Origin: an uncultured cyanobacterium
GTDB taxonomy: Bacteria; Cyanobacteriota; Cyanobacteriia; Cyanobacteriales; Cyanobacteriaceae
DNA: 64,000 bases
Assembly: GCA_963749915.1 (NCBI GenBank)
Contig: CAVVOP010000022.1
Location: 256,001-320,000 of the forward strand
Direction of reading: 5' to 3'
The position numbers and the translations under genes were made by a program. Of this stretch, positions 1 to 21,720 are shown piece by piece. How positions within the stretch are numbered: the stretch's first letter is position 1; each line of letters starts with the position of its first letter. The notes beneath the pieces are model-generated. The model did no database searches. It worked only from the letters and a program-made list of their open reading frames with translations, and was not told the origin of the DNA.

Positions 1-366
1 ATTTTCTTCCACAATGGCTTTTCTTTCCGCTTCGGGAAAATGACGCATCACACGGTTAACCCCTAGAGCGATATTTTGTCGAACCGTCAACCAAGGTAAT
101 AAAGAATAGTTTTGAAAGACTACCATGCGATCGGGACCCGGTTCGGTAACTTCTTTCCCCTCAAGGATAATACCACCGTGAGTTGCATTAGATAAACCGG
201 CAACCATGTTTAAAAGAGTAGATTTACCGCAACCAGAATGACCAATTAAAGAGATAAATTGTCCCTTGTCGATCTTCAAATTAATATTGCGTAAAGCTAT
301 ATATTCTCCCCCATTAGCAAGGGGAAAAATCTTATCAACGTGATCAATTTCAATAAAACTAGGCAT
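1..366 (-). CDS. nrtC: Nitrate ABC transporter ATP-binding subunit (5' part, runs off window)
   Basis: Manual translation MPSFIEIDHVDKIFPLANGGEYIAL...GHSGCGKST (Walker A)...PGPDRMVVFQNYSLLPW; follows nrtB. Confidence 0.9.
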   Translation of the reverse strand, partial: MPSFIEIDHVDKIFPLANGGEYIALRNINLKIDKGQFISLIGHSGCGKSTLLNMVAGLSNATHGGIILEGKEVTEPGPDRMVVFQNYSLLPWLTVRQNIALGVNRVMRHFPEAERKAIVEEN

Positions 367-14276: not shown

Positions 14277-15026
14277 TTATTTGCGGTAAGGAACTCTATC
14301 TAAACTGATGTTTCCAGCTGATACACGGGGTGTAGGAGCTGGTTTAGCATTAATACTGCGAGCCATGTTAAGGTACAGAGAGGGATCTCCAGCTTTGGCT
14401 TGTTTTTCCTGAGGTATAAAACGGCGAACTTGGTTTTGCCAAATAATTTGCGGGAAACCAAGAATGCCACGATAGTAGGCATCATAACGAGGAGATTTGA
14501 GGTTAAAAGGCATTTCTCCTAGTTCGCGGGAAGGTAAATTCCGACGACGTTGATAAGGTACGATGTCATAACCAAAGTTCTCTAAGTATTCGTCAGAGTT
14601 TAATAACTCATCGACGAAGCCTTTAATACCTTTATTAACGACGACAATTGACCATGCAATCTTTTCTCTTTCGCTGTAGGGTGTGCGACCCAACACTTTT
14701 TGAATACAATGTTCTACAAAACGGTAGTTACTATTTTTTTCGTAAAAACTATTTTTAAAGGTTTCTGATAATAATAAACCACGAATAAAATCACGCACAG
14801 TAATCTGTTTGTTACGTAGTTGAGACTCTAAAAAAGGTTCACGATCAGATTTGAAAGCATGGAAAAAGATTTGACGATAAGCCGCTTCAATTAATACATC
14901 TACATCAGACGCACTATAAAGACTTTCAGCATTATAGATTTTTGGTTGTTCGTCGCCGCCTACTTCATAACCAGCTACACGGGTATTCTGAGAATTAGGT
15001 GCGTAATTTAAAAGAGGAATAGCCAA
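14277..15026 (-). CDS. cpcG: Phycobilisome rod-core linker
   Basis: [35 protein letters not shown]; hydrophilic C-terminus, so not CpcL; TTG start after GGAGG. Confidence 0.93.
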
Positions 15027-18003: not shown

Positions 18004-20200
18004 TTAGACAAATTGGACAAACATGAAGTTATCAGCGTCCAATTCGGTGAATCCGATAAGAGTAATCTGACCAAAGCCAGAAGTAATAGAGGTGATAATG
18101 CTGCTTCCAAAGATAGTAGTCGTATCAATGTTTAGAGCACCAAAACCTCCCGCCCCTAGACTAAAGGCCGTTAAATCAATCTTATCATTACCGGTTCCAA
18201 AGTCTGTGATGACATCGGTGCCAAACCCACTAGCAAATACGAAATTGTCGCTTCCTGTGCCGCCCTGGAGGTTATCATTGCCGCGGCTTCCGTAGATGGA
18301 GTCGTTGCCATTGCCACCATTGAGGACGTCCCCTACGCTGGATCCGCCGATGTTAGCTGCGGTATAGGCATAAAGGCGATCGTTGCCATTGCCACCGTTG
18401 AGGGTGTCGCTGCCGTAGCCCCCCTGGAGGAGGTCGTTGCCGTTGCCACCATTAACCAGATCATTGTCGTTGCCACCATTAGCGGTGTCATTGCCGCTGC
18501 TTCCGTAGATGGAGTCGTTGCCGCTGTCACCATTGAGGACGTCCCCCACGCTGGATCCGCCGATGTTAGCTGCGGTATAGGCATAAAGGCGATCGTTGCC
18601 ATTGCCACCGTTGAGGGTGTCGCTGTTGAAGCCCCCCTGGAGGAGGTCGTTGCCGTCACCACCATTAACCAGATCATCGCCGGAACCACCATTAGCGGTG
18701 TCATTGCCGCTGCTTCCGTAGATGGAGTCGTTGCCATTGTCACCATTGAGGACGTCCCCCACGCTAGATCCGCCGATGTTAGCTGCGGTATAGGCATAAA
18801 GGCGATCGTTGCCATTGCCACCGTTGAGGGTGTCGCTGTTGTAGCCCCCCTGGAGGAGGTCGTTGCCGTCACCACCATTAACCAGATCATCGCCGGAACC
18901 ACCATTAGCGGTGTCATTGCCGCTGCTTCCGTAGATGGAGTCGTTGCCATTGTCACCATTGAGGACGTCCCCCACGCTAGATCCGCCGATGTTAGCTGCG
19001 GTATAGGCATAAAGGCGATCGTTGCCATTGCCACCGTTGAGGGTGTCGCTGTTGTAGCCCCCCTGGAGGAGGTCGTTGCCATTGCCACCATTAACCAGAT
19101 CATCGCCGGAACCACCATTAGCGGTGTCGTCGCCTGCTTCGTAGATGGAGTCGTTGCCCCTGTCGCCATTGAGAAGGTCGCCCACGCTGGATCCACTGAT
19201 GTTGGCTGGCGGTATACCCATAAAGGCGATCGCTTCCTGTGCCACCATTGAGGGTATCGTTACCATCCCCACCGACGAGGGTATCATTACCAGCACCACC
19301 GTAGAGGTAGTCATTGCCCACATCACCGTAAAGGTAGTCGTTGCCGTCATAACCGAGGAGGGTATCATCTCCAGCCCCCCCATTCAAAGTATCATTTCCC
19401 GTATGGGGACCATTATGGGGATTGATAATTGCTGTAATGGGTACTTTAGCGTTAGCAGTGGCGACATCATCCCAAAGATAGCTCGAACTATGCCAATTAG
19501 GATAGGAATAAAGAGGCAATAAAATATTTAGGTTGCTAGAAGCTGGTAAAGAATCGATATAATCGACCTCTTGTTGCCAGTACGAAGGTATTCCATCCCA
19601 AGGGTTCCCATCTTCTCCATCTTCTGTAACATATACATAGCCAACATTCCGACTAACAGCCGTGTCAATATAGTTCCTCATCACCTCGGGATCGTTAACA
19701 GAATACATTAAGCTGGAGAATCGGTTGGGGTTATGGCCGCTGGGGGGATTTGGGGCCGTCTCCCAACCCTTGTTATTTTCAAAGATAACTAAATTAGCAT
19801 TGGGTAAGTCAGAGACATAAACTGAGTCAGGTTGAGTCCCGTGGTTCAGAACCACTGTGCTTAGTTGATTTGTTTTTGCAACATAGTTGTATAATTCTTT
19901 GTAGTAGTTGAAATCCCTAGCACTGGCAGAAGCTTCATCAAAAAAGATCCCATTAACATTGTAATAGTTGCGGTATAAATCAAGATCGGCTTTAACTTCT
20001 TCAAGATCACGTCTTCCGTAATCAGTCCAGACATAGCCGAGTAGATTAACACCAGAGGATCTCAAGTCCTGAAGTCCTCGGACATAGTCACTATTTGGAG
20101 AACTCCCCCCTTTCAAAATTTCGTTTTTCTCGCTACCATTGAGTAAATCATTGTTAGCAGTGCCGAGAATTTCTATATTAGTGGTCGTCATCATCCGCAT
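18004..20200 (-). pseudogene. RTX/Ca-binding repeat protein with a spherulin-4 (GH135-like) domain; single +1 frameshift near 19208 (real or sequencing error)
   Basis: ORFs 19118-20200 and 18004-19383 join at [18 protein letters not shown]; GGxGNDxL nonapeptides; LGYV.TDYG.R, GIFFDE and PLYSYP motifs; RBS GAGGGAG before the ATG at 20200. Confidence 0.8.
18280..19260 (-). repeat. 213-bp (71-aa) intragenic tandem repeat, about 4.5 copies
   Basis: GATCC anchor recurs at 18341, 18554, 18767, 18980 and 19190 (213, 213, 213, 210 bp apart). Confidence 0.92.
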
Positions 20201-20250
20201 TATCTCCCTCTGTTTTCATTTACCGAATTTTATCGAGAAAATCCAACAAC

Positions 20251-21720
20251 CTACTTAAAAGGTCCTAAGATATTTTTCTCGACTATACTTTGAGTGGCAG
20301 AATTATCCCCAAAAGTACGTTTAATGTCTAGTTTTACTTGAACTGCTTTACCTGTTTCTAAATAGCGAGGATCTATGGGTAATTGTCCTAGGTCAATGAG
20401 AAAGCGATTATTACTATAACGAATCACTTCGGGGGGAATTTCACCTTCATAACGTAATGTATAATCACTTACTGGACGTAAACGGGCTTCTGAAGAGTTA
20501 GAGACACTATATTTGATATAGAAAGTCGTCTTAATTAAATCAGATTTTTCCCCTTCATCAATTAATTCTACTTGCAATCCTAAACCCACTCCTGATAAAC
20601 CCTTACTTTTTAGTCTTGTAGCATCCTGGGATCTGATGGCATTGAATACGAATAATTCTGTAACGTTATTTCTCTGTAAAATATTGGTTTCTAGCCATAA
20701 ATCAGGGGAAAATTTCATTGCGACACTACGATCGTCTTGTAAGTTTAGGGTAATGGTATCATTGCTGAAAGGTTCAAATACTTGAGGGGCATTCCAGATT
20801 AAAACCACAGAATTTTCTACTCTTTCCAACAATTCTAAGTACTGATCATCGATAATGGAATTTTGTGCAAATAATGCCTTTGCTCCCGTGCGGGTTTCCC
20901 ATATATTTTTAGATAAACTAAAACCCCTATTTTTTAACTCTGCCATGGTGACGGAAGCAGAAAGGCGATCGGGTGCTAACGGTTGATTAGTATTGATCAG
21001 AGTAAGAGAACCTAGTTTTCCTTCTCTTCCAACCCTTCCGGATCTACCATTTTTGCCATTTTCTCCGTTTAAACATCTAAATTCCTTACTGCTACAACTA
21101 TAGTCAGGCTCTCCTGGCCTACCTGTACAAGATTCTACTACCCAATAGGGTTGAGGACATTGGCAACCCCCACCACCATTACCACCTTCACCAGGTTTAC
21201 CACCCATGGCACCGTTAGCCTGAACATAGATTTGTGTTAAATAGTTTTTGTCCGTTGCATAGATAGTCAAAGATCCTCCATTGCCACCATCGCCACCATT
21301 ACCACCGGTGCCGCCGTCACCGCCATCACCCCCCACAAGATTGTAATTAACATTAACAGGTTGATTATCACAGAGGGCATTTTCACCGTTACCACCATTT
21401 TCCCCTGGAAATCCCTCCTGTCCAGATAAATCTAAATTTAGAGGCGAACCATCGGCAAAAATAGTCAAAGCCTCACTATCTCGACCCCTAACTCCATCTT
21501 TCCCGTCAACACCGTCCTTACCGTTTTTCCCAAAGCCGAGGATTTGATTAGCAGAGGCTTTTAAAAAACATATTGCCGATTTAGGGGTTAAAGTAGGCAA
21601 CATATCCGGAATAAAGAAAAATAGTGCTGTAAGAGAAACCCTTGCAAACCAACCCATGATAGTTAAAGATAGAAGACGACATTTTATGACTTTACCATAC
21701 TGCGCTTTTTCTTTACTCAT
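20251..21720 (-). CDS. Collagen-like (Gly-X-Y) repeat protein, probably exported
   Basis: GKNGKDGVDGKDG, GGDGGDGGTGGNGG and GENGKNGRSG runs with Cys clusters; start uncertain. Confidence 0.72.
   Translation of the reverse strand: MSKEKAQYGKVIKCRLLSLTIMGWFARVSLTALFFFIPDMLPTLTPKSAICFLKASANQILGFGKNGKDGVDGKDGVRGRDSEALTIFADGSPLNLDLSGQEGFPGENGGNGENALCDNQPVNVNYNLVGGDGGDGGTGGNGGDGGNGGSLTIYATDKNYLTQIYVQANGAMGGKPGEGGNGGGGCQCPQPYWVVESCTGRPGEPDYSCSSKEFRCLNGENGKNGRSGRVGREGKLGSLTLINTNQPLAPDRLSASVTMAELKNRGFSLSKNIWETRTGAKALFAQNSIIDDQYLELLERVENSVVLIWNAPQVFEPFSNDTITLNLQDDRSVAMKFSPDLWLETNILQRNNVTELFVFNAIRSQDATRLKSKGLSGVGLGLQVELIDEGEKSDLIKTTFYIKYSVSNSSEARLRPVSDYTLRYEGEIPPEVIRYSNNRFLIDLGQLPIDPRYLETGKAVQVKLDIKRTFGDNSATQSIVEKNILGPFK

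Follow-up and report, generated by a model that had tools for sequence, protein, structure and literature searches.

RTX-tailed enzymes that are exported by type I secretion normally carry their catalytic domain ahead of the roll. The RTX rolls themselves fold upon secretion in a Ca2+-driven manner, proceeding from the C- to the N-terminus (relevant passages of PMC10511787 and PMC5618222). In glycoside hydrolase family GH135 (pfam PF12138) the structure of a single member has been characterised and bacterial biochemistry is nearly lacking according to excerpts of PMC12054363, and the GH135 enzyme Sph3 is described in parts of PMC9860509 and PMC11356417 as a retaining endo-alpha-1,4-N-acetylgalactosaminidase. 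The closest precedent for a permuted barrel inserted in another gene is family GH70, where the glucansucrases and GtfB are natural circular permutants relative to GH13 and GtfC; the sections of PMC4919382 on this subject explain the permutation by duplication and truncation followed by insertion into another gene, and describe discontinuous flanking domains. A description of a permuted GH135 protein, or of the architecture reported below, was not found in a literature search that had most subscription journals and CAZy annotations outside its scope.

The window, i.e. the whole stretch of 64,000 nucleotides that was analysed, derives from an uncultured cyanobacterium and contains at 14277-15026 an ORF that we take to be phycobilisome-linker-like. 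On its reverse strand we found an ORF encoding a protein of 360 aa (19118..20200; P0001), the nearest named homologues of which were cyanobacterial. A profile search matched PF12138 with 146.8 bits (gathering cut-off 30.2), split over two stretches. Model positions 44-239 aligned at aa 33-215 (121 bits) and positions 1-43 followed directly (32 bits), all in one open frame, which is the pair of matches that the original prediction, made from the sequence letters alone, had expected of a circularly permuted domain. The solved GH135 member runs collinearly from beta1 to alpha8, an order that P0001 does not have. Both structures of Aspergillus clavatus Sph3 (5c5g and 5d6t) were matched in the same swapped order by phmmer against the PDB, with the later part of P0001 resembling residues 9-48 of the 5c5g chain and the earlier part residues 54-195. 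RTX nonapeptides (GGxGxDxLx) were indicated by PF00353, which scored above its cut-off. The domain is flanked by ...NEILKGG and TGNDTLNGG..., and the insertion therefore lies between the GG and the xGxD of a single RTX nonapeptide. This agreed with the expectation that the new termini sit inside one such repeat, the roll aligning across both sides. The motifs and residues quoted in support of it were all in place (10 residues at aa 33, D88/E89, E141, stretches of 23 and 12 residues, and TGNDTLNGG). By profile, modelled fold and residues P0001 is a member of PF12138/GH135. Since GH70 holds both orders (PMC4919382, in the part concerned), domain order does not define a CAZy family and P0001 is a variant. 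We regard the architecture, a permuted GH135 barrel within an RTX nonapeptide, as practically certain. Positions of the features are given in the table.

Table. Features of the permuted GH135 gene and its RTX tail (positions in the window).
Feature	Position	Strand	Remarks
N-terminal RTX half, aa 1-32	20105..20200	-	about 2.5 degenerate nonapeptides, ending in LKGG
GH135 barrel alpha2 to alpha8, aa 33-217	19550..20104	-	PF12138 model 44-239; includes D88, E89, N119 and E141
GH135 beta1-alpha1-beta2, aa 224-266	19403..19531	-	PF12138 model 1-43, relocated C-terminally; barrel-closing
D88-E89	19934..19939	-	Sph3 D166-E167 via 50-residue offset
E141	19778..19780	-	Sph3 E222 (general acid/base; PMC12054363, excerpts)
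Proximal RTX nonapeptides, aa 267-331	19208..19402	-	resume the interrupted repeat (TGNDTLNGG...GYDG)
First 213-bp repeat unit, with indels	19134..19208	-	+1 base at ~19208 and -3 bases at ~19140-19134 relative to other copies
RTX array	18275..19259	-	213-bp (71-aa) unit, 4.6 copies
RTX cap at the C-terminus, with putative type I secretion signal	18004..18274	-	common to paralogues on contigs C3 and C27; signal role putative

A scan for promoters and terminators remained at chance level (6 versus 4.5 and 2 versus 2.4, respectively). At 20251-21720 on the same strand the window encodes a protein of 489 aa in which collagen-like, Gly-rich stretches and Cys pairs occur. It had no Pfam match at E 0.1 and was conserved in 6/6 congeners at 73-82% DNA identity.

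The explanation that we favour, with a probability of roughly 0.55 as judged from sequence and structural models, is that the gene encodes a type-I-secreted, permuted GH135 enzyme trimming a Pel/GAG-type matrix. An extracellular, Sph3-like barrel, cut at its beta2-alpha2 loop and inserted in one RTX nonapeptide, would be exported unfolded and C-terminus first via a HlyB/HlyD-type system of the host, and the roll would fold outside the cell, driven by Ca2+. The enzyme would act as a retaining endo-alpha-1,4-N-acetylgalactosaminidase, with D88 as nucleophile and E141 as acid/base, on a Pel/GAG-type polymer. This polymer would most likely be that of the host itself, produced by a pel-like locus that lies on a different contig. 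The permuted enzyme might then trim, release or disperse matrix outside, with the ordinary GH135 protein of the pel-like locus acting at the envelope.

The pel-like locus is located on contig C27 (~136-149 kb; L105:9969-19999 and L106:1311-6330). It encodes a collinear GH135 paralogue, a 604-aa unassigned membrane protein, GalE and a 1346-aa RTX-tailed polysaccharide deacetylase, and further a fusion of a response regulator with an HlyD-like protein, PelF and a 552-aa unassigned membrane protein. PelF was recognised by NF038011 with 138.5 bits (cut-off 100) and also matched PF11997. For PelG (PF16933) and a GH114/PelA-type hydrolase (PF03537) there was no match in the host genome, so that we call the locus pel-like only and infer the identity of the polymer. 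At its C-terminus, the GalE protein has an MshE-type c-di-GMP motif. A run of four genes (L105:5162-9915) lies immediately upstream of the collinear GH135 gene; it encodes a flavin-dependent oxidoreductase, an NAD-dependent epimerase-like protein, a cytochrome P450 and a Rieske oxygenase and may be a cluster for lipid or sterol modification. Among 401 genomes of the phylum, our own included, PF12138 was present in five and PF11997 in ten, with all five being among the ten and kin among the genomes not being independent; in 4/5 genomes with both domains the genes were encoded on the same contig within ~10 kb. Calothrix NIES-2100 encodes five genes of this locus together and also has the permuted gene, and subsets of the locus recur in other cyanobacteria. 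The places matched in PMC7112194 contained no cyanobacterial pel operon. The suggestion that the protein probably hydrolyses GalNAc/GalN exopolysaccharide after type I secretion gains from the pel-like locus with PelF and from HlyB/HlyD-like genes in the same genome. We regard hydrolysis of a GalNAc polymer by the permuted protein as probable, and the host's own matrix as its somewhat favoured main target.

The same secreted hydrolase might mainly be directed at foreign polymers, such as fungal galactosaminogalactan or the Pel of neighbours, and serve invasion, scavenging or competition. Such a role would suit a stand-alone gene that is encoded on another contig than the pel-like locus and was not found by a domain query in 6/6 congeners and 19/19 family members, and the Crocosphaera MAG (completeness not given) has the permuted gene with no match to PF11997 or to collinear GH135. 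In Calothrix, Tolypothrix and Crocosphaera (L009:2858-3922; L010:1984-2660) an N-terminal FG-GAP propeller is fused ahead of the permuted GH135-RTX module. The best PDB matches of the Calothrix propeller were the fungal lectins PVL and AAL2 (E 3e-62), which bind GlcNAc, and this lectin-like domain could anchor on foreign surfaces; the gene in the window has no N-terminal propeller. Two out of three testable hosts, however, encode the pel-like locus, compared to 10/401 genomes of the phylum (PF11997), and we consider a mainly foreign target unlikely.

Export by type I secretion has to be discussed together with the RTX tail. The frame shifts near 19208, which the original prediction had not reported, and the remaining RTX array and C-terminus are in frame 18004..19383. 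The 360-aa product as assembled is therefore without RTX array and C-terminus. Taken at face value, the shift would make the gene a recent pseudogene of this strain that has lost its secretion signal, a reading compatible with that for the family as a whole. The frameshift is present in the assembly, no metagenome contig extended across 19114-19214, and the protein P0249 from another assembly also runs out of frame further down. P0249 is nevertheless 331/332 identical and in frame through the ~19208 site, four single-base indels fall within ~75 bases of one repeat unit, and the repeat family occurs at four loci, one of them also shattered. A pseudogene is therefore quite improbable in our opinion, and the frameshift very probably an assembly error.

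The RTX array had its best matches, at 92-93% DNA identity, in RTX genes of contigs C20 and C27. The 213-bp unit is common to four RTX genes with differing N-terminal parts (window 18275-19259; C20:32.6-33.8 kb; C27:51.4-52.8 kb; C27:121.2-121.9 kb) at 83-95% DNA identity, with the copy at C27:121 kb broken by many frameshifts. No full-length match to this unit was found in congeners, and the sharing suggests tail swapping or gene conversion. In a crude hydrophobicity screen 47/55 collinear proteins showed a signal-like N-terminus versus 0/11 permuted proteins (62 collinear proteins were taken and 7 skipped as incomplete or unparsed). The window protein, with its C-terminal tail out of frame as assembled, had no signal-peptide-like N-terminal stretch in this screen. 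Adjacent, near-full-length genes for HlyB-like (E 1e-150) and HlyD-like (E 9e-27) proteins are encoded on contig C22, both below family cut-offs. We are fairly confident that the permuted GH135 protein is a type I secretion substrate.

AlphaFold models of two distant permuted members gave a closed, eight-strand, Sph3-like barrel; these models were built from alignments that include permuted homologues, and they contain no Ca2+. The order alpha2...alpha8-beta1-alpha1-beta2 closes fully in sequence and models, and Sph3 was the fold most similar to P0001's (beta/alpha)8 barrel. The relocated N-part is modelled as strands E225-230 and E255-259 with helix H242-250, the two strands closing the fold, as the original prediction had expected of aa 225-265. 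The N-terminal RTX half has strands E9-14, E19-21 and E27-34, and the RTX segments on both sides of the barrel align with an RTX block as one beta-roll (model range 4..326, 89 residues, rmsd 1.4) that joins the barrel on its catalytic face. With a 50-residue offset of the 5c5g chain, D88/E89, N119 and E141 correspond to Sph3 D166/E167, N202 and E222. The permuted rows retained these positions in 32/32 cases and the 220 collinear rows in 86-100%, in line with the claim that the catalytic positions are intact. P0001 has both the conserved catalytic Asp after beta4 and the Glu on beta6 (D88, E89 and E141). In work from 2015, Bamford is said to have identified D166 as the nucleophile of Sph3. The text seen of PMC12054363 names Glu222 and prints the Asp as 'Asp196'.

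The barrel might also bind or transglycosylate rather than hydrolyse, the protein then being a matrix adhesin, or a cross-linker for a GalNAc polymer, that depends on Ca2+. The long RTX stalk is adhesin-like, a roll on the catalytic face could restrict the groove, and even Sph3 has been proposed to transglycosylate (PMC9860509, in part). We hold this to be very unlikely, as D88, E89, N119 and E141 are kept throughout the permuted rows as in an active enzyme. A more speculative and rather doubtful idea is that the split RTX roll forms a natural Ca2+ clamp, in which the new barrel ends would be held together only while the roll is Ca2+-bound. If true, the enzyme would be unfolded or inactive in the cytosol and switched on after export. 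On this reading the substrate groove might also be shaped by the roll, in which the aromatic residue of G[YF]D is conserved. It would then represent a natural counterpart to engineered insertion switches, dispersing an undescribed cyanobacterial Pel-like matrix.

The swapped order was further supported by public metagenome contigs from one study, possibly not independent of this assembly, which bridged the internal and C-terminal junctions with 0 differences (run X2 record 13, 19301-19756) and, in run X1 (record 6, 20055-20209), the N-terminal one. A comparison of the genes from the window, Calothrix and Crocosphaera yielded dN/dS values of 0.18-0.20 in the C-part; in the relocated N-part they were 0.17-0.24. 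By these estimates both GH135 halves are under purifying selection, and the low value of the N-part shows that it is not decaying. That the order is an assembly artefact, or that aa 225-265 are the decaying remnant of a second tandem domain, is hardly credible even though tandem GH135 proteins exist (8 NCNC rows) and the locus adjoins a hard-to-assemble repeat: the order is shared by the near-complete Calothrix genome and 9 further clusters, contigs bridge the junctions, and the N-part is conserved, under selection and needed by a barrel that would otherwise be two strands short. Neither the single collinear PF12138 alignment nor the tandem remnant that would have spoken against the original prediction was observed. 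The circular permutation it had proposed was seen as PF12138 halves swapped in a single frame, with the order shared by 11 clusters, and P0001 has the features of a natural permutant, namely a single complete copy, swapped order, closed fold and conservation in independent genomes.

Homologues with the same order had been asked for by that prediction and were found. A scan of genome contigs detected them in Calothrix sp. NIES-2100 (74% identity over all 234 aa) and in the Crocosphaera MAG (67% identity). Protein searches added Calothrix, Tolypothrix, Leptolyngbya NK1-12, one Logan protein and four divergent clusters, the latter known as proteins without genomic context or taxonomy. Separate profiles for the N- and C-part, built from collinear homologues, were applied to 384 proteins, 284 of which matched: 220 were collinear (NC), 38 permuted (CN), 8 tandem (NCNC) and 18 partial or other. 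The 38 permuted proteins, a raw number inflated by added cluster members, formed 11 clusters at 90% identity. Order and junction were thus the same in at least 11 clusters, down to 38% identity, a lower bound because the A2 profile search was crowded by generic RTX proteins. The C-junction GPxTGxDxLxG was present in 38/38 permuted proteins and the N-junction was the same in the fragment P0065. Databases label these homologues merely as 'spherulation-specific family 4' or 'VCBS repeat' proteins. Two Leptolyngbya/Elainella annotations (P0255 and P0256, 259 aa) begin in mid-domain without the catalytic residues found in the 440-aa form P0079, possibly from mis-called starts.

A search with the domain in 40 relatives detected one collinear copy and zero permuted ones. 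PF12138 revealed no permuted copy outside our own genome in 400 genomes of the phylum, nor did the A2 search of these 400 genomes among the three candidates listed per genome. The same was true for a search with P0079 of 27 genomes from another order, which had no positive control, and for a plasmid search with P0107 at 1e-30. A scan of metagenome contigs yielded 40 distant loci and no close match; L048 among them was collinear, as was L013 from the genome scan. The collinear paralogue on C27 shares 49% identity over the C-part. Genes flanking the permuted gene matched separate places in the six congeners, in which the domain query did not find the gene itself, and the permuted gene is probably a lineage-specific gain.

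With respect to its origin, the cut site is the Gly-rich beta2-alpha2 loop, which in collinear proteins reads NPxxGPxGG... and is like an RTX repeat in Gly content. Between NPW and the LPLY that follows, the linker of permuted proteins has a length of 24-28 aa; in the three tandem proteins that allowed a measurement it has 24-31 aa. If a tandem or circular GH135 unit had recombined with an RTX gene at this loop in a single crossover, the domain would have been permuted and inserted together, with type I secretion replacing the signal peptide. The flank signature T...G[YF]D was present in 11/11 permuted clusters versus 0/2846 background sites ([YF]D alone in 4), which favours a single origin and could also reflect structural convergence. 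The trees were equivocal on this point. With LG+G4 (58 of 252 rows) a single permuted clade was rejected (p-AU 0.012). Under LG+C20, run after this result had been seen, on 43 rows that included two further divergent members, the constrained tree exceeded a quick free tree by 13.8 log units and the AU test did not reject the single clade (p 0.765), which does not show that the clade exists. The two permuted groups stayed apart in both free ML trees. The permutation seems to have arisen as a by-product of the mode of domain insertion. The proposal of a barrel reopened 'so it could be displayed' from the beta-roll was not supported, since collinear GH135-RTX fusions exist (P0357 and P0177) and permutation is therefore not required for RTX export.

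We consider the protein as a natural GH135 permutant in which permutation and insertion apparently came about in a single event, by which the export route was changed as well. It offers a clean case in which to study how permutations arise, and whether the folding of an enzyme can be gated by the beta-roll in which it is embedded. The protein further draws attention to a rare cyanobacterial locus that is pel-like and contains GH135, and to soluble, anchor-free candidates for biofilm-dispersing enzymes. Compared to Pel loci (PelF/PelG/PelA), the host locus is similar in PelF, which scored above cut-off, GalE and the deacetylase, and differs by the lack of PF16933 and PF03537 matches and by the presence of collinear GH135, the RTX tail of the deacetylase and unassigned membrane proteins. 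With RTX-tailed, type-I-secreted enzymes (the serralysins PrtC and AprA, lipases, the RTX blocks of CyaA) the permuted protein shares the nonapeptide beta-roll and C-terminal cap, whereas here the catalytic domain interrupts the roll and there is no toxin domain. Sph3 is the best match in sequence and structure, with the barrel and the acidic residues in common. Sph3 is, however, collinear, membrane-anchored and encoded in the GAG cluster, unlike the window protein, which is permuted, has no signal or anchor, lies inside an RTX roll and is encoded apart from the synthesis locus. In GH70, as here, a glycoside hydrolase (beta/alpha)8 barrel is naturally permuted and inserted in another gene. The families are different and so is the cut site, GH70 starting at alpha3 and the window protein at alpha2, and the host domain is in our case a Ca2+-binding RTX secretion roll that is split within one nonapeptide.
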